A DNA stretch of 64,000 nt from Candidatus Saganbacteria bacterium. GTDB lineage: Bacteria > Margulisbacteria > WOR-1 > O2-12-FULL-45-9 > XYB2-FULL-48-7. The first letter of the stretch is position 1. Each line of letters starts with the position of its first letter. Below the pieces are notes generated by a model that saw only the letters and a program-made list of their open reading frames with translations, searched no databases and was not told the DNA's origin. The stretch covers positions 15,230 through 79,229 of the forward strand of contig JAFGHC010000030.1 in assembly GCA_016939335.1 (NCBI GenBank). Reading direction: 5' to 3'. The position numbers were made by a program, and so were the translations under genes. Positions 4,336 to 63,797 of this stretch are shown here, piece by piece.

Positions 4336-4359
4336 ATTTATCCCTCCTAATAAATACTT

Positions 4360-5370: not shown

Positions 5371-5500
5371 TACAAATGCACCTCCTCAATGCTCCCTATC
5401 ATTGCGGCAATAGACATGGGGCCTCTAATGGCAAATTAGTTCCATGTTTTATTCTTTCAAGATCTTGCTTATTCGCTATTTTAGCCATACTTGATCACCT

Positions 5501-7171: not shown

Positions 7172-7267
7172 TTTTATCCTCTTAAGTCATCTTATCAAAT
7201 ATCTTTTTGCCCATCAATTCAGCACTAAACGCAATATTTTTATCGGACGCCCCCCTTGATGATCCGG

Positions 7268-15228: not shown

Positions 15229-15251
15229 GATCTCCCTCCTTTAATTTCCGT

Positions 15252-19737: not shown

Positions 19738-20750
19738 TTTTTTCTAACGTCTTCGCCGCGCTGATAGGGTCTGGTCCATTCAATCACTTTAGCCAGCGCT
19801 TCTCCGAGGCGGTATTTCGGCCGCCATTTTAATTGCTTTTTTGCCTTGGAATTATCTAATCTCAAACAAGCCGTTTCATGAGGCTGCTGGCCGCACTCAA
19901 TTATATAAGCGGCTTCTCCGCCCCAGACCCGGCATAACTCTTTGACAAGCCATTCGACCGATCTAGCGTCACTGTCGTCCGGCCCGAAATTCCAGGCCCC
20001 GGCATATTTATCGCCGCTCCGGTACAACTTCTCGGCTAAAATCAGATAGCCCATTAACGGCTCCAAAACATACTGCCAGGGACGCGTGGCTTTGGGGTTC
20101 CTGATTTTAATTCTTTCGCCTTTTAAAACCGCCCGGACAAAATCCGGAACCAATCTGTCAACCGCCCAGTCCCCTCCCCCGATCACATTCCCGGCCCGGG
20201 CGGTCGCGACGTTCATCCCGTATGACCGCCGGTAAGCCTGGGCGACAAGTTCCGAGCACGCTTTGCTGCTCGAGTAAGGATCATGCCCTCCTAATGCGTC
20301 AGTTTCTTTAAAACCCGCGTCCCTCATCCCCCGTACCCCAGACCTGATCTCGTACACCTTATCCGTCGTCACATTGACGACCGCCCGGACGCTTTTACCG
20401 GCCCTGGCCGCCTCAAGCACGTTGACCGTCCCCATCACATTGACTGCGAAGGTCTCGCTCGGTACCTTATATGATTCTCTCACGATCGGCTGGGCCGCCA
20501 TGTGGATCACGATCTCCGGCTTGGCAGCTGACATGGCCTTTTTCAGCGACTTGGAATCCCTTACGTCAGCAATCACCGAACTGACCAATTCATCAACCTT
20601 ACATAAATTAAATAGGCTCGGGTTGGTCGGCGGACGCAGGGCATAGCCGGTCACTTTCGCCCCGAGCAGGCTTAGCCAGAGGCAAAGCCAGGAGCCCTTA
20701 AAGCCGGTGTGGCCGGTAATAAACACCCTTTTCTTGCGCCAGAATTCCAC
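19704..20750 (-). CDS. rfbG: CDP-glucose 4,6-dehydratase
   Basis: 348 aa; GTG start with AAGGGGG Shine-Dalgarno; RVFITGHTGFKGSWLCLWL..HMAAQPIVRESY..NVMGTVNVLEA collinear with Salmonella/Yersinia RfbG/DdhB. Confidence 0.85.
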   Translation of the reverse strand: MEFWRKKRVFITGHTGFKGSWLCLWLSLLGAKVTGYALRPPTNPSLFNLCKVDELVSSVIADVRDSKSLKKAMSAAKPEIVIHMAAQPIVRESYKVPSETFAVNVMGTVNVLEAARAGKSVRAVVNVTTDKVYEIRSGVRGMRDAGFKETDALGGHDPYSSSKACSELVAQAYRRSYGMNVATARAGNVIGGGDWAVDRLVPDFVRAVLKGERIKIRNPKATRPWQYVLEPLMGYLILAEKLYRSGDKYAGAWNFGPDDSDARSVEWLVKELCRVWGGEAAYIIECGQQPHETACLRLDNSKAKKQLKWRPKYRLGEALAKVIEWTRPYQRGEDVRKKCWQQIEEYMK

Positions 20751-20762
20751 TCTAACCCCCTT

Positions 20763-20846
20763 AATTAAACAATGTCACAATTAAACAACTCACAGCCAAA
20801 ATTAAACAATTCTCAACTAAAATTAAACAATGACACAATTAAACAA
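20763..20846. repeat. Array of 5 AATTAAACAA units (left arm of inverted repeat arrays flanking the 4-helix-bundle gene)
   Basis: AATTAAACAA at 20763, 20779, 20800, 20821 and 20837 with 5-12 nt spacers; reverse complement of the TTGTTTAATT units at 21251-21338. Confidence 0.8.
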
Positions 20847-20860
20847 TTCACAAATATTAG

Positions 20861-21250
20861 TTAATTGTCTAATTGCGCCGAAGCCTTGGTCAGTATACTG
20901 CTCAAGATATTCCTTAATTCAAGGCTTTCCCGCAATAAGTCGTCAATTTCTTTCTTGTTCACTTCATTTTCCAATAATCCGACCTCTTTCACTATTCTAA
21001 GCCAATAAGTGGTTTCCCTCGCTTCTCTTCGGGCAATTCCCATTTTATAAATAAAATCCTTTTTGGAATGAGCGTCGTCCGCTTCTTCCACGTTCGCGCC
21101 AATCGACGTCCCCGCCGCCATTAATTGTTCCCCCAGCTTAAAGCCCGCCGTGCTCTTAGGGAAGGCCATCACGAGCTTTATGATCCTCAAGCTAAAATCA
21201 AAAGTCCTGTCTTTTATATCAAACTTTTTTCGCTCTATTTTATTTCCCAT
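20861..21250 (-). CDS. Four-helix-bundle protein (23S rRNA intervening-sequence protein family)
   Basis: 129 aa; all-helical, K/E-rich, central GTSIGANVEEAD..ARRE motif typical of the S23-IVS/four-helix-bundle family; AT-rich relative to flanks; bracketed by inverted repeat arrays. Confidence 0.6.
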   Translation of the reverse strand: MGNKIERKKFDIKDRTFDFSLRIIKLVMAFPKSTAGFKLGEQLMAAGTSIGANVEEADDAHSKKDFIYKMGIARREARETTYWLRIVKEVGLLENEVNKKEIDDLLRESLELRNILSSILTKASAQLDN

Positions 21251-21338
21251 TTGTTTAATTGTTTAATTGTGATTTGTTTAATTGTTTAATTGTGATTTGT
21301 TTAATTGTTTAATTGGGTTTTGTTTAATTGTTTAATTT
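21251..21338. repeat. Array of about 8 TTGTTTAATT units (24-nt super-unit TTGTTTAATTGTTTAATTGTGATT twice, plus variants)
   Basis: Direct tandem repeats read from sequence; inverted relative to the 20763-20846 array; overlaps the 3' end of rfbF. Confidence 0.8.
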
Positions 21339-22113
21339 ATCCCCAAACCTTCCAGGCCGCCTGGCCCGACCGCCAGAGCTCTTCAAGCATATTTTTCTCC
21401 CTCAAAGTATCCATCGGCTGCCAGAAACCGTTATGTTTATAGGCCATCAATTGGCCTTCCTTGGCCAGCCTTTTTACCGGCATGTTCTCAAAGGCCATCT
21501 GATCCCCCTCGATATAATCGATGACTTTCGGATCCAGGACAAAAAAGCCGCCGTTGATCCAGGTATAGTTCCCCTCGGTCTTCTCCAGGAATCTCTCCAC
21601 GGTATTTTCTTTGCTGATCCGCAAGGCGCCGAACCGTCCGAGCGGCCTGACGGCGGTCACGGTCGCCAGCTTGCCGTGGGCGCGATGAAAGTCCAGTAAT
21701 TCCTTAAGGTTAATATCGGCAACGCCATCGCCATACGTGAACATAAAAGGTTCGTTACCAAGGTACTCCTTCACCCTTTTCAGCCGGCCGCCGGTCTGGG
21801 TCTCCAGCCCCGTATCGACCAGGGTCACCTCCCAGGGCTCGGCCGTATGGCTATGAATAACTTTCTTTTCGCCTTTATTGAAATTAAAAGTGACATCAGA
21901 TTCATGCAAAAAATAATTCCTGAAATACTCTTTAATCAGGTACCCTTTATAGCCGACGCAAATGACAAACTCATTAAAGCCGTAATGAGAATATCCCTTC
22001 ATGATATGCCAGAGGATCGGTTTTTCACCGATATCAAGCATCGGCTTTGGCTTGAGATAAGATTCCTCGCCGATCCTTGTCCCCTGCCCGCCCGCCAAGA
22101 TAACGACTTTCAT
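21337..22113 (-). CDS. rfbF: Glucose-1-phosphate cytidylyltransferase
   Basis: 258 aa; [76 protein letters not shown] nearly collinear with Salmonella RfbF ([39 protein letters not shown]..). Confidence 0.9.
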   Translation of the reverse strand: [258 protein letters not shown]

Positions 22114-22131
22114 GTCATTCCGCCTCCTCGT

Positions 22132-23628
22132 TTATTTTATGACCTGATAAATAACGATTTGATTGTCACGCTTCTGCCCTTCACTACCATAACCCGGGTC
22201 ATTCACCTTGCCGAAAACCCGGCAATGATCGCTTAAATACCTGCCCAGGTATGCGGCGTGAAAATGTTGTTTTAAATGGGACTCCTGATAAATAATATAT
22301 TTGATATTAAGCTCCTTGATCCGCCGGGCAAACCCGGCGTAGGTCTGGCAATCGTTATCCGGCGCGAGCGAACTGTTCTCGAACGCGTAAAACTTGTATT
22401 CCAGCAGGCCGGGATAGAGCGACATATTCCCGGCCACGGCAAAATCACCCGGCCGGGGCAAGACCGCTTTTAGCTTGCCGGCATAGCGATAATAGTCGTA
22501 ATCATGGTATTTGTGCCAGTAAAACCCCAGACCAGACAGATTGATCACAATAAATAGACCGATCAGCAAAGACACCGGCCGGCCAAATATCTGCTTTAAA
22601 TAAATGACCGTGAAATAAACGAACGGCAGCAGGACCAGATAATAATATTCGCTCATTCTAGGCATAACGATAAAGATTGGCAAAAAACAGAGTGCCGGGC
22701 CCAGGATCCGGCCGATCGTCCGCCATTGCTCGTTGGTCATCCGGCGCCGATCAGCGACCGCCCAAAGCATGCCTGCCAGGAAGAGGAGTGTCGCATTCAA
22801 CGTCTTGTAGTTGACAAAAAAGGCCGCATACCGCAGTAAGATCCCGCCAAAGTTGAAGCTTTCCAGGCTTTTCCTGACAACAATAACTTGAAAATAAAAT
22901 GAATTGAAATCGCTGAAGAGCCAGATCAGATAAGGGACCAGCGGCAAGATAAAGCCGGCTAAAATCAATGCGGCACGTGCTAGTTTCCCCTCTTTCCGGC
23001 TGAACAGCCAGCAGACCATCAGGTAGATCAGCGCGTAAATGCCGTAAAAATGGGTCAGGACCGCCAGCCCCGCCAGCAAACCGCCCAGCAACAAATAGAA
23101 AGACCCCTTGCTCCGCTCCGAGCGTAAATAAGCCAGGATGGCCAGCAGGGAAAGCAAAAGGGTCGGCATTTCCGGCCGGACATAACGGGCCATGATGAAA
23201 TAGAACGGGTTGCTGAGGAACATGATCGCCAGCAGCCATGCGTCTTCGGTCGCCAACTGGAACCGCGCCAGCGACCGGTAAAGCCAGGGGACGGTCAGCA
23301 ACACCAGAAAAGAAGCAAGCAGCGCCAGCACTCTCCCCTGCAGGATGCCGAAACCGATCAGCTTGAACAGCAGGCCGTTCAGCAGATAAAAGAAGGGCGG
23401 GTGAATGTGAAAATAGCGGCTTTCATTATGCCCGGCCTCAAGCATCCGGCTTCCCAGATAACCGTGCAAAGCAAAAGTCCGGGAAACTTCTAACAAGCCA
23501 CCGTCATCCACCCGGATAAACGGCACGGCATCGATCTTGTAGCAATAAGTCAGCAATAAAGCGCCGGCGACCGCTATTAGCACGGCCAAATAAATGCCTT
23601 TTTTATTAAAGATCAACTTTTTCTCCAT
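22132..23628 (-). CDS. Polytopic membrane glycosyltransferase, GT-C fold (ArnT/PMT, GT39/GT83-like)
   Basis: 498 aa; about 11 predicted TM helices, N-terminal periplasmic-loop motif ESRYFHIHPPFFY reminiscent of the ArnT/PMT DE..RY motif. Confidence 0.55.
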   Translation of the reverse strand: MEKKLIFNKKGIYLAVLIAVAGALLLTYCYKIDAVPFIRVDDGGLLEVSRTFALHGYLGSRMLEAGHNESRYFHIHPPFFYLLNGLLFKLIGFGILQGRVLALLASFLVLLTVPWLYRSLARFQLATEDAWLLAIMFLSNPFYFIMARYVRPEMPTLLLSLLAILAYLRSERSKGSFYLLLGGLLAGLAVLTHFYGIYALIYLMVCWLFSRKEGKLARAALILAGFILPLVPYLIWLFSDFNSFYFQVIVVRKSLESFNFGGILLRYAAFFVNYKTLNATLLFLAGMLWAVADRRRMTNEQWRTIGRILGPALCFLPIFIVMPRMSEYYYLVLLPFVYFTVIYLKQIFGRPVSLLIGLFIVINLSGLGFYWHKYHDYDYYRYAGKLKAVLPRPGDFAVAGNMSLYPGLLEYKFYAFENSSLAPDNDCQTYAGFARRIKELNIKYIIYQESHLKQHFHAAYLGRYLSDHCRVFGKVNDPGYGSEGQKRDNQIVIYQVIK

Positions 23629-24713
23629 TAAATGCCCAGCACTTCCTTGAGGCCGATCGGCTCGCCTTTGACCTGCCGGCGGTAAACACCGCGCATCAGT
23701 TTCCAGATAAAACCAGGGATAAATACCAGAGGGACAATTTTCAGCCAGAACATGGGATGCGTCCAGTAGACCCTGAAGAGGAAAGGCAGAATATCCCCGA
23801 TAAAGCGCCGGGGATTTTCTATCCTTAACCTGACCGCCCAGGAAAAGCCATCATTTCTAATAACCAGTTCATCAATTAAGCGAATATACTTTTTGTCCTC
23901 AAAAACAGCGCTGGAAACTTTCCGATAAATCGAAACATCCTGTCTCAGCCGCAACTCAGCAAAAGGCAGGGATTTCCACTGCTCAAGCTCGGGCGTCCCT
24001 TCCTTGCCCCACCGCCTTTTGACCAGAGGCGCCGGCAGGTACTTAATCGTTCCCGGCTCGCCCCCCCACAGGAGCGCCTGAAAAACATAAAGATGCAGAT
24101 AAAAAGTGCCTGTAAACTCCTCTTTACCCCTGACGCGCAGCCATTTTTCCCGGAGAAAAATGATGTTCGAAATATAATTGCAATAAGCGATCAGCTTCTT
24201 ATTCGCCTTAAAATACCGGTCGACTTCCTCCTTTCGGGAAAAATCAAAGGTCTCCGCCCGGACGAACGGCATGATCTTGCGCCGGCGCATCGGCCGGTCC
24301 GGAGTTAAATAGAAATCCTCTTTTTCTCCCAGATAAAGATCTACCTGATCCTCCCCCTCCAATTCCCGCAAAACACTTTTCAGCGCCCCCGGGGCAAGCA
24401 GGTCATCCGAGCCTAACAGCCAAATATACCTGCCAAGAGCGCGCCCTACCAGCAACTGGAAATTATTGTCCATGCCAACATTCTTTTCGTTTTTAAAATA
24501 TTTGACCGTTAGTTTTGTGCTTGCTTTTATCTTATCTATTACCGCATCGGTCGAATCGGTCGATGCGTTGTCAGAGATGAGAACCTCAAAGTCACCGGCC
24601 TTTACTTCGGCTGCCTGCGCCAAAATGCTGGCCACTGCTTCCTGCAGCGTCTCCGCCCGATTGTAGGTCGGGATACAAATCGACAGCAACGGCTGTTTTT
24701 GTTCAGAACTCAC
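23628..24713 (-). CDS. Family 2 glycosyltransferase (copy 1)
   Basis: 361 aa; LLSICIPTYNRAETL..LISDNASTD (GT2 DxD-type N-terminal domain); paralog of 26686..27750. Confidence 0.75.
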   Translation of the reverse strand: MSSEQKQPLLSICIPTYNRAETLQEAVASILAQAAEVKAGDFEVLISDNASTDSTDAVIDKIKASTKLTVKYFKNEKNVGMDNNFQLLVGRALGRYIWLLGSDDLLAPGALKSVLRELEGEDQVDLYLGEKEDFYLTPDRPMRRRKIMPFVRAETFDFSRKEEVDRYFKANKKLIAYCNYISNIIFLREKWLRVRGKEEFTGTFYLHLYVFQALLWGGEPGTIKYLPAPLVKRRWGKEGTPELEQWKSLPFAELRLRQDVSIYRKVSSAVFEDKKYIRLIDELVIRNDGFSWAVRLRIENPRRFIGDILPFLFRVYWTHPMFWLKIVPLVFIPGFIWKLMRGVYRRQVKGEPIGLKEVLGI

Positions 24714-32910: not shown

Positions 32911-33624
32911 TCACCGGTTCTCGGCAAGGTACTCCTTTACGGCTTTTAAGCTCGTTTCCCTAAGCCTTAATTTCGGCCTAACAAAGCGCGGCGACCAGGC
33001 GCTCAACCCGAGCAGATCGTAGGTCACCAAAACCTGACCGTCGCAAGCCGGTCCCGAACCGATCCCGATCGTCGGGATTTCTAGCGCGTTCGTGATCTTT
33101 TCCGCCAGCCGCGGCTCGACCATTTCCAGCACGATCGCAAATACGCCGGCCCGCTCCAGCGCCCTGGCCTCTTCGATCAGCGCTTCAGACTTCACGACGG
33201 ACGGCTTGACGCTGGTTTGCGGCAAATAGCCAAGGTGACCCATGACAGGTATCCCCGCGGCAATTATCTTCTTGATCTGCCCAAGCTCCTTTGTCCCCTC
33301 CACTTTCACGGCCTCCGCGCCGGCCCGGACCAGCTTGCGGGCATTGGCAGCGGAAAGCGAGCGGAACGGCATATCGGCCGCCAGCAGCGCCCGCTTCACT
33401 CCCTGGCCCGCGGCTTTTGTGTGATGCAGCATATCCGCCATCGTCACGCCGCGAGTGTCCGGCAAGCCCAGAATGACATTGCCCAGCGAGTCGCCGACCA
33501 GCACGATATCGACCCCCGCCTCATCCAGGATCTGCGCGATAGGATGATCGTAAGCCGTCAGCATTACGACCTTTCGATTTTCTGATTTCGAATTTCGTAT
33601 TTTCTGTGCTGTTATTTTTTCCAT
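32911..33624 (-). CDS. panB: 3-methyl-2-oxobutanoate hydroxymethyltransferase
   Basis: 237 aa; VMLTAYD..VLVGDSLGNVILG motifs, collinear with E. coli PanB. Confidence 0.85.
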   Translation of the reverse strand: MEKITAQKIRNSKSENRKVVMLTAYDHPIAQILDEAGVDIVLVGDSLGNVILGLPDTRGVTMADMLHHTKAAGQGVKRALLAADMPFRSLSAANARKLVRAGAEAVKVEGTKELGQIKKIIAAGIPVMGHLGYLPQTSVKPSVVKSEALIEEARALERAGVFAIVLEMVEPRLAEKITNALEIPTIGIGSGPACDGQVLVTYDLLGLSAWSPRFVRPKLRLRETSLKAVKEYLAENR

Positions 33625-39934: not shown

Positions 39935-39940
39935 CAAACT

Positions 39941-39998
39941 GAAATTCGAAATACGAATAACGAAATACGAAGGAATATCGAAATTCGAATTTCTGATT
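39941..39998. repeat. Copy of GAAATTCGAAATACGAA-based dispersed repeat (half-element; ends in 14-bp palindrome GAAATTCGAATTTC)
   Basis: About 85% identical over about 50 nt to the left half of the element at 45023-45188. Confidence 0.6.
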
Positions 39999-40234
39999 TA
40001 AGCCCCCTGGGTTTTAATGAACCCCTTGACCGCTTCCATGATCTCGATCGGCACGGCCCTGTTAAACATCTTTACCCCTCCCGCTCGATTGCTAACATAC
40101 CGCCTGGCCAGGTCGCTAATTTCCTGGCTGGTCGGTATCCCTAAATTGTCGTTGTCGTCTGGCATGGGAGAAAGCATAGCATAGAGAAAAAGCAACAACA
40201 CAATGTCAACAGAATCATACCAACAACATTGCAA
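39998..40234 (-). CDS. Small hypothetical protein (low-GC island)
   Basis: 78 aa ORF; real start probably the internal MLSPMPDD; weak evidence. Confidence 0.25.
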   Translation of the reverse strand: MQCCWYDSVDIVLLLFLYAMLSPMPDDNDNLGIPTSQEISDLARRYVSNRAGGVKMFNRAVPIEIMEAVKGFIKTQGA

Positions 40235-40336
40235 GAGATAATATGTCTTATAGAATAACTAGCTGGACAGCCTACTAGTGATTTGACCTGACCACGTAAT
40301 ATACGAATTAATACATAAATATTATTGCAACAACCG

Positions 40337-40702
40337 TTATCTTAATTTAATTAGCTTACTAATTATTTGAAGAGCATTGAAAAAATCAAGACAATAACCC
40401 ATCACAATCGAAAGGATCGCAATACACAAACCTGTCACCCAGAAACTCTTATGTCTAATCTGTACGGCCGCCGCAATCCATAAAATAATCAGGAACTCAA
40501 GAATTATGGTAATTTCCTTATATGGAACAAGAATATTCAAGCGGAGTAGCACGGAACAAATAATAAATAGCATAACAGGAATAGCCAGCCAGATTATGTT
40601 TACCTCTTCCCCTATGTCAAGTAATTCATCCTTATTAAACCCCAAGTTTAGGCAAAGACCCTTTATTTCTTCAGGAGATCCTTCCATCCCCATAAATTTC
40701 AT
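40337..40702 (-). CDS. Small integral membrane protein (3 predicted TM helices), low-GC island
   Basis: 121 aa; hydrophobic stretches IIWLAIPVMLFIICSVLL, ITIILEFLIILWIAAAV, VTGLCIAILSIVMGY; about 35% GC versus about 60% flanks. Confidence 0.5.
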   Translation of the reverse strand: MKFMGMEGSPEEIKGLCLNLGFNKDELLDIGEEVNIIWLAIPVMLFIICSVLLRLNILVPYKEITIILEFLIILWIAAAVQIRHKSFWVTGLCIAILSIVMGYCLDFFNALQIISKLIKLR

Positions 40703-40703
40703 A

Positions 40704-41090
40704 TTATAACCTTTGAACTTGTCCTGGGAATAGAATTGTTTTTACATCCTCTTGGACTCGTTGCTCATTCCATTGATTGGGGGAATCATCCTTAATTAAA
40801 ATCACTCTATTAGGGTCCATAACAAAATTTGTTCCAGAAAAATGAAAAGAAGACAATGTCCCCTGAAAAGCATTTTGATTAATATTATTCAATGCATTAG
40901 AAAGGGCCCCCGAAGTCTCTTCGTAATTATCACAGGACGTTCCACTGGGAATAAATTTCACTTCTATAATTGCCCCGTCCTTTAAGCATGGATATATATT
41001 CGTCTGAATTCCAATATTTGGCTTTAAGTGCGAAGAAACATTCCTCCTGAAATTATTCACATAATTCTGTAATACTTCTTTATCATCCAT
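40704..41090 (-). CDS. Hypothetical soluble protein, low-GC island
   Basis: 128 aa ORF immediately upstream of, and co-oriented with, the membrane protein; N/Q/S-rich. Confidence 0.45.
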   Translation of the reverse strand: MDDKEVLQNYVNNFRRNVSSHLKPNIGIQTNIYPCLKDGAIIEVKFIPSGTSCDNYEETSGALSNALNNINQNAFQGTLSSFHFSGTNFVMDPNRVILIKDDSPNQWNEQRVQEDVKTILFPGQVQRL

Positions 41091-41193
41091 CTTTTAAGCC
41101 CTCCTAATCGAGAAAATAGAATATTAGCTCAAATATTATCAAAGCAAGAATTCAACCACAACCAAAAAACACTAATAAGTAATACCGATTTCG

Positions 41194-41207
41194 CCCCCCC
41201 CCCCCCC
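41194..41207. repeat. Homopolymeric poly-C/poly-G tract (14 nt)
   Basis: CCCCCCCCCCCCCC at 41194-41207, abutting the TAG stop of 41207..42184 and about 100 nt upstream of the 40704..41090 gene. Confidence 0.9.
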
Positions 41208-42184
41208 TATTTACTGATCTGATCTGTAATCCTGGTTATTTCAAATCCGGATATCGTAGAATCTTTCGATGATACGAAGCCCGTATCGCCAGATTCAAAT
41301 ATTGATTTCGTCGCTTGAATCAATACAGCATCTTTGGTTTTCGAGTCAGAACTTGCTTGAACAAAAGATTGAAACGTCTTTAAACAATTTTCACGATGCT
41401 TATTTAAAGTATATAAGTGCATATTCGCGCTGTAATTTTTTACTATTTGATAAAACACAACCGAGAAAAATGATAAAAGAAGGATTTTTGCTATGAAAAT
41501 TTGTATTGAAAGCTGGAAATCAACCCCCTTTTCCAGGGTAACCATTAGCTGGCTAATAATCCACCATAAAAACCAGCCTATTAGGGCAACCGATACCACT
41601 ACAGCCCAAAACCACTTATCAGCAAGCCTCTTATTTTCTTGAGCCTGAGTCCTAAACACATCGGCGTACCTGCTCACGCCCGTTTCAGCAGACGCCTCTT
41701 TCATCGCATTTATGATTGCATCAGCAGCACGGCTTTTCTCCTCAATGGAATCAAGAAGCGCTTTAGTTCGTCCTTCCAGAAATTTGGCATAATCTTCAAC
41801 TCCTATTTTATCAATAGAATTCTCCAAAAGACTAATTTTCAAAGGATCATAAAACAAATTGGCCATATTCTGGTACTCATTAAGGAATACGTTAATCAAA
41901 TTTTTTCTTTCTGATGCTGGGTCGGACTTATTCTGAGGAACATAATTTTGTATATCTCTTATAATTAAAAGATAATGATTAAACGAAGCAACAATACTGC
42001 TTTTAGTATTTGTTGGCAGAATTGACCATAATGATTCATTCTTTTCTAATCTTCTCCAATTTTGATAAGATTCTTTAAGTAATGGATAGATATCTACAAA
42101 ATCAAAGTCCTTCCCTTCTCTTTTGAGTTGTTCAATGTCTATATTTTTTAATTTTTCAAATTGGTCTTTTAGTTGCTCTATCAT
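41207..42184 (-). CDS. Hypothetical 2-TM protein (N-terminal helical domain, central TM hairpin, C-terminal Ser/Thr-rich tail), low-GC island
   Basis: 325 aa; TM hairpin WFWAVVVSVALIGWFLWWIISQL .. IFIAKILLLSFFSVVFYQIV; no recognisable catalytic motif. Confidence 0.5.
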   Translation of the reverse strand: MIEQLKDQFEKLKNIDIEQLKREGKDFDFVDIYPLLKESYQNWRRLEKNESLWSILPTNTKSSIVASFNHYLLIIRDIQNYVPQNKSDPASERKNLINVFLNEYQNMANLFYDPLKISLLENSIDKIGVEDYAKFLEGRTKALLDSIEEKSRAADAIINAMKEASAETGVSRYADVFRTQAQENKRLADKWFWAVVVSVALIGWFLWWIISQLMVTLEKGVDFQLSIQIFIAKILLLSFFSVVFYQIVKNYSANMHLYTLNKHRENCLKTFQSFVQASSDSKTKDAVLIQATKSIFESGDTGFVSSKDSTISGFEITRITDQISK

Positions 42185-42260
42185 ATTTTCTCCTTGGCAC
42201 CTTTATTCACAATTCTAATTCTCCCACCCCCCTCTTTTGGTGTCAACGGTTGAGGAAAAT

Positions 42261-42287
42261 GGGATATGGGGTATGGGCATAAAGCCC
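42261..42287. repeat. GGGATATGGGGTATGGGCATAAAGCCC dispersed repeat, copy 1
   Basis: Shares GGGGTATGGGC..AAGCCC with 44931-44954 (same orientation). Confidence 0.5.
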
Positions 42288-42332
42288 GCACTACTCGCTC
42301 AAGTGATCGTTTGCGGAGGAACTTTCAGTCGC

Positions 42333-42734
42333 TCAGAATTCCCACCAGTGACGTGTTCGCCATCCTAATAGGGAATCGGAAGACTGGTCCATTGCCGGTC
42401 GCTCTGGCGCGTAATTTCTTGGAACTCGGTGATCTCGGCGCATTAACTTTGTAACGAGCGGACCGATCGCGGGATCGCTCGAGAAAAGATTGCCGGCGTC
42501 CCGCAGCCATTCTCCTATGCGGGTCTTTAACAAATCCTTATCTTTTGTAGTAGTCCTTAACAGGGCTTCTCCATATTGACGAAAAGCAGCGCGGTCACTG
42601 ACCGCCGGGACCGATCTGTCGAGGAAGCTGCCGGTCGCCTTTTTGGCCGGACCACCGGCAACAGCTTCTATCTTTTTAAACATGGCGGTAATTTGCTCCG
42701 GGCTTGGTCTGCGGGGTCCAACACGATGAGCCAT
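42333..42734 (-). CDS. Hypothetical protein
   Basis: 133 aa high-GC ORF; no motif recognised. Confidence 0.35.
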   Translation of the reverse strand: MAHRVGPRRPSPEQITAMFKKIEAVAGGPAKKATGSFLDRSVPAVSDRAAFRQYGEALLRTTTKDKDLLKTRIGEWLRDAGNLFSSDPAIGPLVTKLMRRDHRVPRNYAPERPAMDQSSDSLLGWRTRHWWEF

Positions 42735-43164
42735 AATAATACTCCTTTTTATTTCGCCGGCTTTAATACCAGCGTAATCCGGCTACGAAACATTATCTTG
42801 CCTTAATTTAGAAAATTTCAGGGGATTTTATTAGGGCTACTGACTTGGAGGACTTTGAAGTGCCTTGCGGGTCTTGCGGTTGCGATGCGCGTTTCGATTT
42901 GCGTCAACCCCTGACCAGCCCCAATTCCCCTGAAATCCCTTTATTAATATCATGATATACACCCGGAGCTAAGAGATGCCAGGAACAGTAGGAAGAACAA
43001 TCATATTGCCGCCCGGCGCTGGAAAAGAAAATCTCCAGCCGGTCAGGGACGCGGTCAAAAAAAACCTGGCGGGCATGGAAAGCCTGTGAGGCCGGAACTT
43101 CTCCGGTATCGTCAGCTCAAGTATCAACCAACCGGGCGCCCTAGCCAGGGAAATACTGGGCACG

Positions 43165-43431
43165 ATGTCCCTGGTCCTGCGGCAGTGCCCCGTTTTGGGA
43201 ACAGACGGAGCACCCGGCGCAAGGACCTACTTCGCTCACCCGATGGCCTTTTTCCGGGCCGAGGCTCATTTACTGCGCGATCTGGGCGAATGTTTGGCCC
43301 CGGACAATTATGCCCCCGGCCTGCTTAAAAGTATCATTGGTGAAAGATCCGAACTGTATAAATTGGAAGTACGCGTCCCCGCCGATCCGGCGGGCGGAAG
43401 CTGGCTCCGGCGAGATCATTATGACAAATAA
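43165..43431 (+). CDS. Small hypothetical protein
   Basis: 88 aa ORF whose 3' end overlaps by 11 nt the ATG (43421) of the next ORF. Confidence 0.25.
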   Translation: MSLVLRQCPVLGTDGAPGARTYFAHPMAFFRAEAHLLRDLGECLAPDNYAPGLLKSIIGERSELYKLEVRVPADPAGGSWLRRDHYDK

Positions 43432-44167
43432 TCTGAAATTCCCGGCCGGCCGCGCGGAAATACATCCGGCGGTATTTCTCGCGCGGAGGCAAGTAAATAT
43501 GGTTTTAGACATCCGTCCAGTTAACCCGCGGCTCATCGCACAACTGGCCAAGAGCCGGGTCAGGCCGGAACAGGTCAGCAATGTGCTTAACTGCCCGCAC
43601 CTGCTGGACAGATTTCGGGTGCTCACCCCATCCGCGATGCAAAAGCTCAACGGGGATGATCGCTGGCTGCAACGGATTGAGGCTGATCTGTCGGCCAACC
43701 CTATTCTGGATCAATCTTCGCTGATAATCATGCGAACGCAATTGGATGTCAGTGAATTTACTGACGGCAAAGGCAAGGTGCTTTATTACGGCGCTTGTTG
43801 CTACAATAAAGCCGACCGCGCGCTCTTCCGGCAAATGCAGGCCGACTATTCCTGTTCCTTTGAGGCGATCGCGCTTGAAATGAAAGAGAGATACGGGATT
43901 GAACTGGAAACTGACACCCCGATCACGGAGATGCCGCTGGAAATAAAAGCGTACTACTTTCTCGATCAGGAGTTCGGGCTGGGCGCGAGGCTACAAACCG
44001 CCGGTGTTGAGCGGATCGCGATCCAGGCGGCGGGAGAAAAGCCTTTTATCAGCGGGGAAGTCTGGAAAAGAACCGTTCACCTCCCTTTCTCTTTTCTTAA
44101 CCGAACCGGCCCATACGAAATAAAAGATAGCCTCGTGCGCTTGTTACCCGTTCGGCCTTCGGCCTGA
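43421..44167 (+). CDS. Hypothetical protein
   Basis: ORF track frame 43310..44167; preferred ATG at 43421 (MTNNLKFPAGRAEIHPAVF..); about 249 aa; no motif recognised. Confidence 0.4.
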   Translation: MTNNLKFPAGRAEIHPAVFLARRQVNMVLDIRPVNPRLIAQLAKSRVRPEQVSNVLNCPHLLDRFRVLTPSAMQKLNGDDRWLQRIEADLSANPILDQSSLIIMRTQLDVSEFTDGKGKVLYYGACCYNKADRALFRQMQADYSCSFEAIALEMKERYGIELETDTPITEMPLEIKAYYFLDQEFGLGARLQTAGVERIAIQAAGEKPFISGEVWKRTVHLPFSFLNRTGPYEIKDSLVRLLPVRPSA

Positions 44168-44976: not shown

Positions 44977-45022
44977 GGGGTATGAGGAGGGGAATATGGC
45001 GGAAGCTAAAGAGTTGACGCGT

Positions 45023-45188
45023 GAAATTCGAAATACGAATCTCGAAATACGAAATAATATCGAAATTCGAAGTGTTTCCCGTTTCTAATTTGCTTTCTTT
45101 CGCATTTCCTTCGAATTTCGGAATTCGAGTTTCGTATTTTGTCTTATTCGTATTTCCTTCGAACTTCGAAATTAGTATTTCGTATTTT
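45023..45188. repeat. MITE-like imperfect palindromic element built from TTCGAAATACGAA / TTCGTATTTCGAA units
   Basis: The left half (GAAATTCGAAATACGAATCTCGAAATACGAAATAATATCGAAATTCGAAG) and the right half are inverted copies of each other; the left half is about 85% identical to 39941-39998. Confidence 0.6.
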
Positions 45189-45293
45189 AAGGGGGCATCT
45201 CCCTTTAGCTTGACGCAAACCTGACAAATGGCCGTGTTGCCGAACGGGCCCGGCATTGTATTTTAGGCCTTTTACTGCTAAAATCCGTCTATA

Positions 45294-56978: not shown

Positions 56979-57423
56979 AAAGCTCCCGGAATTTAGCCTC
57001 GAGTTTTGGCCGGAGCGGATTGGTCCTCAAGCCGGCATAAAGCTCTTCGATCACGCCCTTTTCCCGCGGCAGCGCGGCCAGCACTTCGCTCCGCTCGCTC
57101 TCCGGGAGCAGGGTGAGCAAAAAAGCGGTCGTCTGCGGCCGTTCATAGATCAGCGCGGGGAACGAGCGCCGCGGCGCGGCCGGGCGGCCGGGGGGCGGCG
57201 CTTCGGCCGTACGGCCGGGCGGCAGAGCGAGAAAACTCTGGTAGTCTTCCAGCACTTCGGACAGGGCCTGGGGCGACGGGGTCGGCAGATGGTTGATCCC
57301 GGCCGCGATCAGGTCGGCGATCTCCTCGGGCAAATAGCGGAGCACCCGGGAGGAAACGTCGGCCCCCAGGATCGACAAGAAAATCGTGGCTTTTTCCCGT
57401 CCGGTCAATGCCATGTCATTCAC
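56956..57423 (-). CDS. fliG: FliG-like protein, N-terminal (FliF-binding) domain only (155 aa)
   Basis: ALTGREKATIFLSILGADVSSRVLRYLPEEIADLIAAGINHLPTPSPQALSEVLEDY aligns with the FliG N-domain (T. maritima GRRKAAVLLVALGPEKAAQVMKHLDEETVEQLVVEIANIG..). There is no room for middle or C domains between fliF and fliH. Confidence 0.6.
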   Translation of the reverse strand: MNDMALTGREKATIFLSILGADVSSRVLRYLPEEIADLIAAGINHLPTPSPQALSEVLEDYQSFLALPPGRTAEAPPPGRPAAPRRSFPALIYERPQTTAFLLTLLPESERSEVLAALPREKGVIEELYAGLRTNPLRPKLEAKFRELFAGKVFQ

Positions 57424-58912
57424 TCAACCAGCGTTTCAAAAGTTCGGCGATCTGCTCGGGATTGCGTTCGGCCAGGTTCCTGACCTGGTCGAGCTTGGAG
57501 CCGCGCTCGCCCGGCGGCGGGGGCGGCAAGGGCGGCTCGGTCAGCGGCAGTTCGGTTCCCGGCCGCGGGCGCAGCGCGCTCAAGCCCCAGATCACGAGCA
57601 GAATGGCGACGATGCCGATGGCCCACCAGAGCAGTTTGAGGAAAGAAACGTAATAAAAGATCTTTCTCATGCCGGCCTGCTTCGGCGGCGCCGGCTTCGG
57701 CTTGACCGGCGACAGGGCCAGCGGCGGGTTGGCCAGGTGGAACGGCACCCGCTGGACCTGGATCCGGTCGCCCCGCTTCTTGTTGTAATTGATCGCGGCC
57801 GCCACCGTCGTGTAAGTCGCCTGCTTCAGGTTCTTGTTGAAATCGACGCGGTTGTCGACCAGGACGATGGCGGTCAGTTTCTTGATCTTCAGCTCCTTGG
57901 CCCTGATCTCGCTGTCTTTGGCCGGCTTGACGTCGGCCGTCACCTTGACAATAATGCTGTTGAGCGGATAGAAACGGTTGAGCAGTTCCTGCGCTTTGCC
58001 CGAAAGATCAGCCTCCAGCTCCTTTTTGGTCTGGACCTTGAGCCGCAGCCGTTCTTCGGCGGAAAGGCTGGCCGGAGCGGTCAGCGGCAAAGCCGCTTCA
58101 ACCGACGGGGCCGCCTTGACGGCGGCCGCTTTCTCCGGCGGCATTTCTTTTTTGATGATCACTTCCGGCGTAGGCGCGGCCGCTTCGAGGGTCAGCATCA
58201 CGACCGGCTCCTCGGCCGGCGTCGGCGCGGGGGCGTATTTCAGCGGCGGCCGGCCCGTCTTCAGCGTCAGGATCCGGCCCGAATCGTCGACCACCGTCAC
58301 GTTCTCCGGCTGCAGGTTCTCCACGCTGTTCGCCACCAGGTGGACGATCCCGTCGATCTTGGCCGGCGCCAGCTCGAAGCCGGAGCGGAGGCGGATCAGC
58401 ACCGCGGCGGTCACCGGAGCGGTGGTCGCGGCGAAAAGCTGGGTCTCGGGAATGACCACCTGGACCCGGGCGTCCTCGATCCCCTCGATGCGCTGGATGT
58501 TGCGGGCCAATTCCCCCGAGATCGCGCGGATCAGCTGGATGCGCCGGTCGAAATCGGTCGCCCCCAGCCGCGATTCGTCGAAGATCTCCCAGCCGACCTG
58601 GCCGCCGGCCGGCAATTTCTTTTCGGCCAGGCCGAGCCGGGCCTGGTCTGCCTTCTCTTTCGGCACGGCGACCGAGCGCCCTTCGTCGCGGATCTCGTAA
58701 GGGATCGCCAGTTCTTTGAGCCGGGCGATCACGTTGGCGGCGTCTTTCAGCTCCAGGTTGGTGTAGATGACGGTCTGACCGACTTTCTTGGGGCCGGCCA
58801 GCGGCGCGCAGCCCCGGAAGAGGAAAAAGAGCATGGAAAAGACAACAACGACGACCACACCGCCGACCAGGAAAAGCCGTCGCGGATCAAAACCGGCCGC
58901 TGCTTCTGCCAT
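57416..58912 (-). CDS. fliF: Flagellar M-ring protein FliF
   Basis: 498 aa; N-terminal TM, YscJ/FliF ring-forming domain, C-terminal TM and cytoplasmic tail. Confidence 0.8.
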   Translation of the reverse strand: MAEAAAGFDPRRLFLVGGVVVVVVFSMLFFLFRGCAPLAGPKKVGQTVIYTNLELKDAANVIARLKELAIPYEIRDEGRSVAVPKEKADQARLGLAEKKLPAGGQVGWEIFDESRLGATDFDRRIQLIRAISGELARNIQRIEGIEDARVQVVIPETQLFAATTAPVTAAVLIRLRSGFELAPAKIDGIVHLVANSVENLQPENVTVVDDSGRILTLKTGRPPLKYAPAPTPAEEPVVMLTLEAAAPTPEVIIKKEMPPEKAAAVKAAPSVEAALPLTAPASLSAEERLRLKVQTKKELEADLSGKAQELLNRFYPLNSIIVKVTADVKPAKDSEIRAKELKIKKLTAIVLVDNRVDFNKNLKQATYTTVAAAINYNKKRGDRIQVQRVPFHLANPPLALSPVKPKPAPPKQAGMRKIFYYVSFLKLLWWAIGIVAILLVIWGLSALRPRPGTELPLTEPPLPPPPPGERGSKLDQVRNLAERNPEQIAELLKRWLSE

Positions 58913-59006
58913 TTATCGTCCTTTCTATGTCAATGAGAATAAGGCAACTTTTTAACTCTTTTTATTTTTAATTTTTTATTCTTAATTTTTTATTTTTGAT
59001 TTTATT

Positions 59007-59402
59007 TTAGACCTGCATCTGGGTTATTTCTTTTATCGTCGAGACCGTCGTATTGACGGTCGTGACCGCCAGGGTCTCCAGCACGCTCAATTTCGACTGG
59101 GCGATCATCACGTCGGCCAGTTCCGCCTGACCATGGGCATATTTATCGATCAACTGATTGGTGTAAACCTCGGCGCGGCTGACGCCGTTGAGCTTATCGA
59201 TCGCCTGGCCCAGCAGGTCATCAAAGGGGTTGCCGGAAAAAGCGGTCCGGGCCGCCGGCGCGGAGGCCGCCGTCGCCGACGGGAAAACCGGCGCCTGGGC
59301 CACCACGGGCGCCTGATCCAGAAAATTATTACCATTATTGCTGTCGCCGATCAGCTGGGCCAGTCTTTCTTCCGCGCTGAGCGGTCCGATCGCCTCGATC
59401 AT
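59007..59402 (-). CDS. fliE: Flagellar hook-basal body complex protein FliE
   Basis: 131 aa; C-terminal ..ELADVMIAQSKLSVLETLAVTTVNTTVSTIKEITQMQV typical of FliE. Confidence 0.75.
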   Translation of the reverse strand: MIEAIGPLSAEERLAQLIGDSNNGNNFLDQAPVVAQAPVFPSATAASAPAARTAFSGNPFDDLLGQAIDKLNGVSRAEVYTNQLIDKYAHGQAELADVMIAQSKLSVLETLAVTTVNTTVSTIKEITQMQV

Positions 59403-61204: not shown

Positions 61205-62365
61205 TTAGATGACCTCCAGCGGCGCCTTGAGCGCGCCGCTCTTCTTCATCGCCTGCAGGATCGAGATCAGGTCCTTGGGCGAGGCGCCGATCGTGTTGAG
61301 CGCCCGCACCAGCACCGCCAGGCTGGGCGCGGCCGGCACCAGCGTCAGCTGCGCCGACGAACGCTTGAGGCGCGCCTTGGTCGACGACTGGTAACGCTGC
61401 TGGCCGCCGGCCGTGTAATCGGCCGTGTCGGTCGTATCGCCGACCGAATAGATCGAAACGTCGCCGATGGCGACATCGATGCCGCTGTAAGAGACGGCCA
61501 CCGGGGCGATCACCACGTTCTCGCCGATCACCACGGTGCCGGTCCGTTCATTGATCACGATCTTGGCCACGGTGTCGGGTGAGACGGCCAGGTTCTCGAT
61601 CCGCGCGATCATGGGGACCAGTTCGCCCTCGATCGCCACGGTCACGGTGGCCGCGTCCTGGGGAGTAGCGGAAAAACCGGCATTGCTGATGGCGGCCGCC
61701 ACCCGGCTGGCGGTGGTAAAGTCCGGTTCGTTCAAAACGATAGTGATCCCGCCTTTCCCTTCAAGCGTCACCGGCACTTCTTTTTCGACCAGCGCCCCTT
61801 CCGGTATCCGGCCGACGGTCACCTGGCGCGGCCGGACGTAGGGAACGCTGGGATACGAGGCATCGGCACCGACCACCAGGTTCCCCTGCGCCACGGCGTA
61901 AACCTGGTCATCAACCCCCTGGAGCGGCGTGATGAGGAGCGTCCCGCCCTGCAGCGAGGTGGCGTCGCCGAGCGACGAAACGGTCACGTCAAGTTTCTGG
62001 CCGGAGCTGACAAAGGGCGGCAGCACCGCCGTGACCATGACCGCCGCCACGTTGCGCGACCTGAAATCGACCGACGGCGGCACGACCCCCATGCGCGACA
62101 TCAGGTTGGTGACCGCCTGCTGGGTAAAGCTCGACTGGTTGCGGTCGCCGGTATTGTTCAGGCCGACCACCAGGCCAAAGCCCATCAACTGGTTCTCGCG
62201 CGCCCCCAGGATGTGGGCAATGTCTTTAAGACGGACCGCCGGAGAAGCGCCATAAGCGACAGCGACAAATGACAAATTACAAACAACAAACAATATCAAA
62301 ATAATAAATATTTTAAAATTTAAAACTTGGAAATTGTTTGTCATTTGATGCTTGTTATTTGTCAT
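61205..62365 (-). CDS. flgI: Flagellar P-ring protein FlgI
   Basis: 386 aa; signal peptide, RLKDIAHILGARENQLMGFGLVVGLNNTGD signature. N-terminus has the MTNN..MTNN direct repeat; start may be the second Met (62344). Confidence 0.85.
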   Translation of the reverse strand: MTNNKHQMTNNFQVLNFKIFIILILFVVCNLSFVAVAYGASPAVRLKDIAHILGARENQLMGFGLVVGLNNTGDRNQSSFTQQAVTNLMSRMGVVPPSVDFRSRNVAAVMVTAVLPPFVSSGQKLDVTVSSLGDATSLQGGTLLITPLQGVDDQVYAVAQGNLVVGADASYPSVPYVRPRQVTVGRIPEGALVEKEVPVTLEGKGGITIVLNEPDFTTASRVAAAISNAGFSATPQDAATVTVAIEGELVPMIARIENLAVSPDTVAKIVINERTGTVVIGENVVIAPVAVSYSGIDVAIGDVSIYSVGDTTDTADYTAGGQQRYQSSTKARLKRSSAQLTLVPAAPSLAVLVRALNTIGASPKDLISILQAMKKSGALKAPLEVI

Positions 62366-62379
62366 TTGTGTGTGCGCTC

Positions 62380-63003
62380 CTAAAAAATCCAGTTAAAGAG
62401 CCTCGTCAGCCAGCCGGGCTGGGCGGTATCGGAAACGGCGCCGCTCCCGCTCACGGTCAGCTCGGCGTTGGCCACCTGATAGGAATAGACGGTATTGGAC
62501 CCGGCTATGTCCTTGGGCCGGACGGTGCCGGTCAGCGTGATCTCCTGCATCTCATCGTTGACGTTGACCTTGTGGCGCCCCTTGATCAGCAGGTTGCCGT
62601 TGGGCAGGACCTCGATCACCCAGGCGGCGATCCGCGCCTGAACGTTGTTCCCCCGCACCGTCGAGCCGTCGCCGGTGTAAAGATTCTGCAGCTGGCCGTT
62701 CGCCTGGGTGTTCAAGCCGATGACCGGCGCCAGCCGCTGCATCGTGTGGGTGAACTTGGCGCTCAAATTGTCGGTCACGTTGGCCTTGGTCGTCGCCTGG
62801 TTCTTGGCCGAAGTGTTCTCCAGGATCACGACGTTAATGATGTCGCCGACCTTGTAAGCTTTGGCGGGGGAATAGGGCGAAGCGCTGTCCTCGTTCCAGA
62901 GCGAATTGGCACCCGCCGCTCCGGCCAGGGCCAGCCAGCAAACGCCAAGCATTAAAAAATACTTTTGACTTTTGACTTTTGACTTTTGACTTATTGTTCT
63001 CAC
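62380..63003 (-). CDS. flgH: Flagellar L-ring protein FlgH
   Basis: 207 aa; GTG start overlapping the flgA stop (alternative ATG at 62952); YKVGDIINVVILENTSA..LTVSGSG motifs of FlgH. Confidence 0.8.
   Translation of the reverse strand: MRTISQKSKVKSQKYFLMLGVCWLALAGAAGANSLWNEDSASPYSPAKAYKVGDIINVVILENTSAKNQATTKANVTDNLSAKFTHTMQRLAPVIGLNTQANGQLQNLYTGDGSTVRGNNVQARIAAWVIEVLPNGNLLIKGRHKVNVNDEMQEITLTGTVRPKDIAGSNTVYSYQVANAELTVSGSGAVSDTAQPGWLTRLFNWIF
62962..62989. repeat. Heptanucleotide tandem repeat (CTTTTGA)x4 at the 5' end of flgH
   Basis: ACTTTTGACTTTTGACTTTTGACTTTTGACTT read from sequence. On the minus strand it encodes QKSKVKSQK if the GTG start is used. The 7-nt unit is not a multiple of 3. 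Confidence 0.85.
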
Positions 63004-63797
63004 TGGACCTTGACCTCGACTTCCCCGGCGGCGACAACTCTGGCCGGCAAAATTTTATTGGAATCCTTGCGCTTGACCTTGATCTCCGCGCCGAGCACCC
63101 CGTCCTCCTCCGCCCGGGCCTTGACCTTGACCGTCAGGCCCGGCGCCGCCACTGTCAGCGTCACTTCGTCGCCGCGGTGCACCAGCGGCACCGCGCCGAT
63201 CATCCATTCAAAGACCGTACTGTTGTCGGGGACCGAGATCTTGGCCTCCTGGCTGATCAGGCGGTCAAAAGCCGTGAAATATTTCGGCGGCAAGAGCGCC
63301 ACGTCGCGCTCGTCAAGCTTGAGGTCATCCGGCCCGATCAGCGTCCCTTTCTTGATCAGCCGGGCCGCCGCCACGACGTTCTTGAACACCTCGACCTTGG
63401 CCCGCACCAGGTATTTACGGCCGCCGCTTTCGCAGGAAGCCACGAGCGGGAAGACCACGCTGCCGACCGGACGAAAATCGGGGTAGACCTCGAGCACCTC
63501 CAAGCTGACCGTTTCGGGCAGTTCCTTCATCTCGGCAAAAATACCCTCCGCCTGCCTGAAGGTCAGGTCAATCCGGTCGTTGGCCCAGTCGGGATACCTG
63601 CCCACGACGTAGTTCCTGATCGTCTCGCTGACCCGCTGCTCCGGGTCGTCGAGCGCGCGACAAAACGACAAATGGCCAAGGACCAATGACCAATTAACGA
63701 TTATTGCCAGCAGCAGCAACGCCCTGCCGACCGGACAAAACCGCAGAATTAATTCTGCGGTTTTTGTTCTTGCTTTAAATTCAATCGTGCCCTTCAT
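63000..63797 (-). CDS. flgA: Flagellar basal-body P-ring formation protein FlgA (SAF domain)
   Basis: 265 aa; signal peptide, C-terminal SAF-like ..GDEVTLTVAAPGLTVKVKARAEEDGVLGAEIKVK.. Confidence 0.65.
   Translation of the reverse strand: MKGTIEFKARTKTAELILRFCPVGRALLLLAIIVNWSLVLGHLSFCRALDDPEQRVSETIRNYVVGRYPDWANDRIDLTFRQAEGIFAEMKELPETVSLEVLEVYPDFRPVGSVVFPLVASCESGGRKYLVRAKVEVFKNVVAAARLIKKGTLIGPDDLKLDERDVALLPPKYFTAFDRLISQEAKISVPDNSTVFEWMIGAVPLVHRGDEVTLTVAAPGLTVKVKARAEEDGVLGAEIKVKRKDSNKILPARVVAAGEVEVKVQ

Follow-up and report, generated by a model that had tools for sequence, protein, structure and literature searches.

Heptanucleotide repeats in the signal-peptide coding regions of flagellar genes in the Saganbacteria/Margulisbacteria lineage, with a perfect translated array at flgH

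Introduction

Translational phase variation by means of repeats in signal-peptide coding sequence is known from the opa genes of Neisseria, which carry CTCTT pentamers, and from oipA of Helicobacter pylori, which carries CT dinucleotides. Here we describe a heptanucleotide array at the 5’ end of flgH, the gene for the flagellar L-ring protein, in a stretch of 64,000 nucleotides (hereafter the window; positions 15,230 to 79,229 of contig JAFGHC010000030.1, about half of that contig) from a Candidatus Saganbacteria metagenome-assembled genome (MAG). The organism belongs to the Saganbacteria/Margulisbacteria lineage, the sister group of Cyanobacteria. A first-pass annotation of this DNA had put the array forward as a candidate phase-variation switch for the L-ring.

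Several kinds of heptanucleotide repeat have been described in other bacteria. At hmw1A and hmw2A of Haemophilus influenzae, (ATCTTTC)n arrays of about 13-24 or more units lie between promoters and grade transcription (PMC8262952). Units of 7 nt are the commonest class of long simple sequence repeat (SSR) in prokaryotes according to Mrazek 2007, as cited in PMC4679880 and PMC4692102, and the heptamer arrays of Cyanobacteria and Xanthomonas are described as mainly intergenic and of unknown function (PMC4692102). In Beggiatoaceae and Cyanobacteria, TAACTGA repeats occur in 2-6 copies upstream of the start codons of many unrelated genes (MacGregor 2015, PMC4679880); they are 5’ untranslated, contain stops in all three frames and have one fixed sequence genome-wide. 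In the open-access literature that we searched, neither heptamer repeats in Margulisbacteria or Saganbacteria nor array-encoded signal peptides are described.

Results

A perfect heptanucleotide array at the 5’ end of flgH

The flgH array occupies positions 62961-62992 and reads (GTCAAAA)x4.57 on the minus strand, which is the coding strand. Tandem Repeats Finder (TRF) reports it as a period-7 repeat of 4.6 copies with 100% matches and a score of 64 over 32 nt. On the plus strand, positions 62962-62989 are (CTTTTGA)x4 and the full periodic tract, 62961-62992, is (ACTTTTG)x4.57 with zero mismatches. The earlier observation of four perfect 7-nt copies between a GTG at 63003 and an ATG at 62952 is confirmed by the sequence and by TRF.

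An exhaustive search of the 64 kb for exact tandem repeats (period 4-12, 3 copies or more) gave this array as its sole case. When the self-match threshold was set at 85%, matches in the window were found only at period 7, and both of them lie at flg genes. Two-unit matches numbered 5 against 0.65 expected, and none of 100 dinucleotide-preserving shuffles reached 5. Because the array is the only exact repeat of its kind in the window and two-unit matches exceed those in the shuffles, a chance origin is ruled out; an assembly artefact in the copy number is unlikely, since a single sequencing read is much longer than the 32-nt tract. GTCAAAA arrays occur nowhere else in the 64 kb, and a metagenome scan for both flanks of the array at a spacing of 14-42 nt (2-6 units) gave no match.

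The array starts 11 nt downstream of the first base of the GTG, and its unit has no stop codon in any of the sense frames. Its GC content is 26%, as against approximately 62-65% in the neighbouring coding sequence. It is predicted to be wholly unpaired in the mRNA while its flanks pair, and the fold z-score of the region, -1.5, is unremarkable; a structural RNA role for the array was rejected on these grounds. No promoter, terminator or Rfam family was detected at the array, and it has no inverted T-rich arm, unlike the array at flgI and many of the flgH arrays in related loci.

The array is read from a GTG at a conserved start site

Pfam assignments place the array in a minus-strand operon of flgA (63797-63000), flgH (63003-62380), flgI (62365-61205), a small open reading frame (ORF) and a gene for a FliA-type sigma factor. 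The flgH coding sequence (62380-63003, minus strand) specifies a flagellar L-ring protein of 207 aa (PF02107, E = 9.8e-50). It has 372 homologues, the best of them from Saganbacteria and Margulisbacteria, and the NCBI product called from the same GTG is the identical 207 aa (MBN3033610.1, our P0001, from one contig of a Candidatus Saganbacteria MAG).

The GTG start (63001-63003, minus strand), supported by conservation and by the NCBI annotation, overlaps the TGA stop of flgA (63000-63002) as GTGA. It is preceded by a GAGGT Shine-Dalgarno sequence, part of the Shine-Dalgarno-like stretch GAGGTCAAGGT (63007-63017, minus strand), which lies within the 3’ end of flgA (codons ..EVKV..) 3-9 nt upstream of the GTG, and a GGAGG/GAGGT motif is kept at that position in all related loci. 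For comparison we used 22 species-representative loci from Saganbacteria and Margulisbacteria together with contigs retrieved by exact protein look-up (loci and contigs are denoted by L numbers below); 28 non-redundant loci could be evaluated. All 28 have an in-frame start followed by no stop before the mature FlgH, in the forms ATGA, GTGA, TAATG, TAGTG and TAAGTG, and the start falls within -1 to +3 nt of the flgA stop in 27 of them; in L005 the nearest in-frame start lies 14 nt upstream. The ATG at 62952 has no Shine-Dalgarno sequence and, in the alignment, falls within the hydrophobic core of the relatives’ signal peptides at a position that varies among Ala, Val and Leu (QKYFLMLG in the window, MKKYFALVG in L036, GKYLVLFG in L029).

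These alignments indicate that the GTG at 63003 is the true flgH start and that the downstream ATG is a non-conserved internal codon. Since the GTG at the conserved start site rather than the internal ATG is used, the array is translated, as SQKSKVKSQK. The QKSKVKSQK translation given earlier for the GTG start is thereby upheld, its use of the GTG being supported by the conserved start in related loci, whereas the alternative offered with it, in which the ATG is the true start and the repeat sets the spacing to the ribosome-binding site, is disfavoured by the missing Shine-Dalgarno sequence and the non-conserved position.

The array lengthens the n-region of the FlgH signal peptide

Alignment with homologues and the Pfam match predict a Sec signal peptide, MRTISQKSKVKSQKYFLMLGVCWLALAGAAGA (62908-63003, minus strand), with cleavage predicted before NSLWNE. 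The mature FlgH of the homologues begins (A)DSLWN, and residue 32 is the first of the Pfam FlgH domain. Judged solely by eye and from the alignment, the segment has the layout of a Sec signal: an n-region MRTISQKSKVKSQK, an h-region YFLMLGVCWLALAG, then AAGA and NSLWNE. The approximately 10 Lys/Ser/Gln residues read from the array lie within the n-region.

Plain relatives (L036, L037 and L003) begin with TAATGAAAAAATATTTT, that is M-K-K-Y-F, and have no array. In the window and in L029, (GTSAAAA)n is placed between the start codon and the K-Y-F codons. The alignment of the plain relatives with these two loci shows the flgH array to be an in-frame expansion of the signal-peptide n-region.

Period-7 arrays mark the exported flagellar proteins of relatives and turn over quickly

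We ran TRF on 136.7 kb of the relatives’ non-redundant flg loci and counted arrays with at least 3 copies. Period 7 accounts for 41 of the 57 arrays, with eight of period 6, five of period 8 and one of period 9. All but one of the 41 period-7 arrays lie no more than 200 nt upstream of a mature start, distributed over FlgA (8), FlgH (19) and FlgI (13), which are the three Sec-exported proteins of the operon; none was found in the rod, FlgJ-like or FliA genes of these loci. Distal A-rich units (CTTCAAA, TGTCAAA, TCCCAAA, ACAAGAT, AAACTGC) encode n-regions rich in Lys, Asn, Gln and Thr, proximal T-rich units (TTTGTCA, TTGTATC, TTTGGAT, GTTTTGC) encode h-regions rich in Phe, Leu, Ile, Val and Cys, and the A-rich and T-rich arms are often inverted repeats of each other. 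Consensus units free of stops in all three sense frames number 29 of 40, against 20.4 expected from permutations of the same letters (P approximately 0.001). The reading frame is open in every one of the 15 array-extended FlgH signal peptides (29-65 aa), for which the chance expectation is about (1/3)^15, or about 7e-8.

Within clusters of FlgH at 90% identity or more, the mature part is nearly identical and the N-terminal segments are unrelated. One such cluster has the N-termini MSKIKNQSSKIKNKSK, VKIKNPKFKPQNKSK and MKLQTTNCKLQNKSK; a second has MTNDKSQITNN and MKNSKCKTQNH; and a third has a plain MRRFAWLL as against MKSEKSKVKIGK. Between L158 and L023, mature flgH is 94% identical and the 5’ regions can be aligned gap-free, yet the units differ, (CTRCAAA)n versus (RMTCAAA)n, and in L030 and L033 the mature flgH is 87% identical while the arrays are non-homologous. 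In L023 the flgI start carries a perfect (AAACTGC)x4 array (1494-1524), and in L158 a degenerate array of this unit stands at the flgH start (444-500), a distribution that suggests unit exchange, or parallel homogenisation, between neighbouring gene starts. Because near-identical mature flgH sequences carry different or non-homologous units, the arrays change far more rapidly than the sequence around them, through expansion, homogenisation and perhaps also exchange from site to site, with the frame always open. Perfect arrays of 3.6-4.4 units are also found at flgH in L006 and at flgI in L023, and therefore the flgH array of the window is not unique even in its perfection.

The unit itself is widespread. 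In a scan for this one unit, GTCAAAA arrays of at least 3 units were present on at least 120 unrelated metagenome contigs (L038-L157). Among the matches listed, 48 arrays have 3 copies, 64 have 4, 14 have 5, and two each have 6, 7 and 9; the contigs span GC contents of 0.30-0.66, many being low in GC; and the contexts include the N-termini of secreted and cytoplasmic proteins, ORF interiors, C-termini, short ORFs and intergenic DNA. Several of the arrays make up the first codons of proteins predicted to be secreted (L048, L108, L117) or of cytoplasmic ones, for example MreB-like (L149). No listed match comes from the species of the window or lies at flgH.

Predicted effect of unit number and stability among assemblies

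The first-pass annotation had argued that the frame would shift whenever one unit was gained or lost, and variants of the flgH array, built in silico only, bear this out. With 1, 4 or 7 units the flgH frame is kept. With 3 or 6 units the predicted product is a peptide of 14 or 21 aa ending at a TAA that overlaps the internal ATG (62952-62950) as TAATG (62950-62954, minus strand), from which reinitiation would be conceivable. With 2, 5 or 8 units an out-of-frame product of 51-65 aa is predicted (58 aa for 5 units), with its end 116 nt beyond the ATG.

No second contig of the species itself turned up in the collections searched. In each of three related populations, independent assemblies have identical junctions at the array (L025-L028, four assemblies; L030-L032, three; L033-L035, three). 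The difference between P0115 and P0130/P0131, considered as an OFF allele or length variant, was rejected as such, being a difference in gene calling on identical DNA.

Other repeat arrays and features of the window

The window contains 8 period-7 arrays of at least 3 copies. Besides the flgH array there are imperfect ones at the flgI start (two arms), in the FlgA signal peptide, at the N-terminus of PanB and at 39941-39989, 45017-45208 and 58949-59003 in intergenic DNA. At flgI, TRF identifies an A-rich arm, a degenerate (TGACAAA)n (62337-62369, minus strand) that encodes MTNNKHQMTNN and is homologous to the flgI array of L158, and a period-7 scan and TRF identify a T-rich arm, (TTTGTCA/TTTGTTG)n in the mRNA sense (62264-62293, minus strand), that encodes the core of the FlgI signal peptide, LFVVCNLSFV. 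The two arms (62240-62400, minus strand) are predicted to form a near-perfect hairpin of about 115 nt enclosing the ATG (-47.9 kcal/mol, z = -8.1), which may control translation. In flgA, a degenerate (TTGGTCA)n array (63667-63694, minus strand; TRF period 7, 4.0 copies) encodes NWSLVLGHL in the h-region of the signal peptide; we take its unit to be that of STRR2, although it was not found in the papers that we consulted. Also in flgA, a perfect 12-bp stem with a T-tail (AAAACCGCAGAATTAATTCTGCGGTTTT, 63737-63764) falls within the annotated N-terminus, just past the flgG-like gene that precedes flgA, and the true flgA start may be the in-frame TTG farther downstream (MLLLAIIVNWSL...).

A degenerate heptamer array at 33572-33602 (minus strand) encodes residues ~7-17 of PanB (MEKITAQKIRNSKSENRKVVMLTAYD), a cytoplasmic enzyme confirmed by Pfam, within the first 20 codons. 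Arrays can therefore be translated at the N-terminus of a cytoplasmic enzyme too.

Units of the CGAAATW family occur at four sites in the window. The intergenic element at 45017-45208 consists of CGAAATW heptamers arranged as an A-rich arm and then inverted T-rich arms (RNA fold -57.4 kcal/mol, z = -4.0), and a short ORF (MAEAKELTREIRNTNLEIRNNIEIRSVSRF) with a strong GAGGAGG Shine-Dalgarno sequence reads into it; the family recurs at 33584, 39940-39974 and 45176. The array at 58949-59003 is (TTTTTAA)n of about 7.6 copies, just upstream of the start of the minus-strand ORF 57416-58912, with a GC content of 26% over 58903-59042. Inverted AATTAAACAA-type arrays of period 8, 21 or 23 (20779-20853 and 21249-21337) surround the minus-strand ORF 20861-21250, a small low-GC gene assigned by Pfam to the 23S rRNA-intervening-sequence proteins (PF05635), and the whole resembles a cassette bounded by repeat arrays. 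Blocks of lower GC content (4001-8000, 16001-24000 and 40001-44000; 0.42-0.49 versus 0.58-0.62 elsewhere) may be horizontally acquired segments.

Discussion

The flgH array is probably a young heptanucleotide SSR that expands the signal-peptide n-region, one case of a process at work across the lineage, with its frame kept by selection. Replication slippage on 7-nt units would create arrays in A-rich or T-rich stretches, and purifying selection would clear them from most coding sequence while leaving them in intergenic DNA, at extreme N-termini and, above all, in signal peptides, which would tolerate them because all that a signal peptide requires is charge ahead of hydrophobicity, and it is removed by cleavage. 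Throughout Saganbacteria and Margulisbacteria, arrays of period 7 would accumulate in, and quickly remodel, the signal peptides of FlgA, FlgH and FlgI, and the flgH array would be the youngest such expansion in the window. Here tandem duplication within the A-rich codons just after the flgH start would have made the array in an ancestral N-terminus M-K-K-Y-F, and translation from the GTG at 63003, coupled to the flgA stop, would run through it and enlarge the positively charged n-region. Provided that the frame is preserved (1, 4 or 7 units), the insertion would do no harm, the unit being free of stops and the n-region tolerant, and out-of-frame unit numbers would be lost from an essential flagellar ring gene rather than put to use as a switch. 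A secondary benefit in the mRNA is possible, in the form of an open A-rich initiation region after the GTG in a genome whose coding sequence has a GC content of 62-65%.

Several points weigh against this account. The near-neutrality of the insertion is assumed, and arrays in signal peptides could instead reflect a function, such as export efficiency or control of translation. The flgH array is perfect, unlike most arrays of the window, and therefore points to recent slippage and hence to some ongoing mutability. The stability seen in the relatives is that of consensus assemblies of mostly degenerate arrays, and the population of this species may hold heterogeneity in unit number. The TAATG, by allowing reinitiation when one unit is lost, could be read as design.

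A rival account is a true contingency locus, in which slipped-strand mispairing would alter the number of units often enough to be of use: 4 units would be ON, 5 units OFF through the 58-aa out-of-frame product, and 3 units would yield the 14-aa leader, weak reinitiation and a poorer signal peptide. The resulting mixture of flagellated and non-flagellated cells might serve, for example, in escape from flagellotropic phage or in cost saving. The array does lie within the translated 5’ end, its unit is not a multiple of three, one unit more or less changes the product in silico with three distinct predicted outcomes, one of them with a stop-start overlap, and its perfection implies recent slippage. 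Signal-peptide coding regions are moreover the classic site for such repeats, as in Neisseria opa and H. pylori oipA, and the enrichment of SSRs at N-termini is generally ascribed to frameshift phase variation (Lin and Kussell, as cited in PMC4692102). However, the array has 4.57 units where the proven heptanucleotide phase-variable locus, hmwA, has approximately 13-24 (PMC8262952); none of the 15 array-bearing relatives has FlgH out of frame; arrays are identical across the 3-4 independent assemblies of each of the three related populations; the contig was assembled through the array unbroken; and GTCAAAA is a common unit in genomes and gene contexts that are unrelated. Arrays of this class occur not only in flgA and flgI but also at cytoplasmic panB and in intergenic DNA, and are not specific to a surface gene. 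We consider a contingency locus unlikely, and a phase-variation switch for the L-ring is not supported. What stands of that proposal is the position of the array in the translated, frame-sensitive 5’ end of flgH; what does not is an evolved switch, given the short tract, the absence of OFF relatives and the identical assemblies. The case calls for caution in general: where a genome scatters repeats of one class over many of its gene starts, phase variation cannot be diagnosed just from a non-triplet repeat of that class at an envelope gene’s 5’ end.

Two further explanations set the encoded peptide aside. The array might act mainly in the mRNA, as an unstructured A-rich tract that follows a weak GTG in a GC-rich genome and tunes the translation of flgH relative to flgA, or alternatively as a docking site for an RNA-binding regulator, a role put forward for the TAACTGA repeats, with the peptide incidental. 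The array’s low GC content and its predicted unpaired state between paired flanks would suit this, the strong start-codon hairpin of the sister flgI arrays suggests that such elements can affect translation, and translational regulation has been proposed for start-adjacent heptamers (MacGregor 2015, PMC4679880). Yet close relatives do without an array, starting with a plain MKKYF, the relatives share no unit sequence that a regulator could recognise, the fold z-score at flgH is only -1.5 and no candidate binding protein was identified; we regard a role chiefly in the mRNA as quite unlikely. More doubtful still is an untranslated spacer, in which FlgH would be made from the ATG at 62952 and the repeat would only set the distance between flgA and flgH. 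There is indeed an ATG 51 nt beyond the GTG, with a hydrophobic stretch after it, but apart from its poor context and alignment, the 15-residue signal peptide starting there would lack a charged n-region, and the array can be read right through in an open frame from the GTG, as in all 15 array-bearing relatives, several of which, L023 for example, have no internal start codon.

Beyond in-frame expansion under selection, it is possible, and we put it forward tentatively, that Saganbacteria and Margulisbacteria actively generate and homogenise heptamer arrays that build, extend and rapidly replace Sec signal peptides. Inverted array pairs would, in such a process, often fold as long mRNA hairpins around the start codon, and perfect arrays like that of flgH would be its currently active members, perhaps giving rise to frameshift variants at low frequency. 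If real, it would be an undescribed route of signal-peptide birth and turnover and would give STRR-like heptamers a concrete role. Should the pattern hold genome-wide, it would mean that slippage-prone simple DNA can create and remodel functional signal peptides, and the unexplained heptamers of Cyanobacteria and other bacteria would gain a selectable role, or at least a defined selective filter.

Comparison with known repeat systems

Like the opa and oipA repeats, the flgH array has a non-triplet unit in the signal-peptide coding region of an envelope protein, where a change in unit number shifts the frame. The opa and oipA tracts are longer, however, and polymorphic between and within strains, with frequent OFF alleles, whereas flgH has 4.6 units, no OFF state among 15 relatives and no polymorphism in the relatives’ assemblies; and their hosts are host-adapted pathogens, whereas the bearer of the flgH array is an environmental bacterium. 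With hmwA it shares a 7-nt tandem unit upstream of or at the start of a surface-structure gene, but it is short and translated, and a change in its unit number would shift the frame rather than grade transcription.

The TAACTGA repeats resemble it as short heptamer arrays adjoining start codons. They differ in that the arrays of this lineage lie downstream of the start, tend to be free of stops and have units that vary between genes and strains; the flgH array in particular is neither 5’ untranslated nor interrupted by stops in three frames. With the long heptanucleotide SSRs of prokaryotes and the STRR-type heptamers of Calothrix and Nostoc, the arrays of this lineage share a dominant period of 7, dispersal and a location at gene boundaries, and the flgH array fits the class of long heptanucleotide SSRs and STRRs known from Cyanobacteria, Xanthomonas and Beggiatoaceae. 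Unlike the mainly intergenic arrays of Cyanobacteria and Xanthomonas, those described here are systematically translated, in frame, in Sec signal peptides. The flgH array is in itself ordinary, a member of a known repeat class whose mutability is only potential, and what is new is the lineage-wide set of arrays that build signal peptides, a variant on a known kind of repeat.

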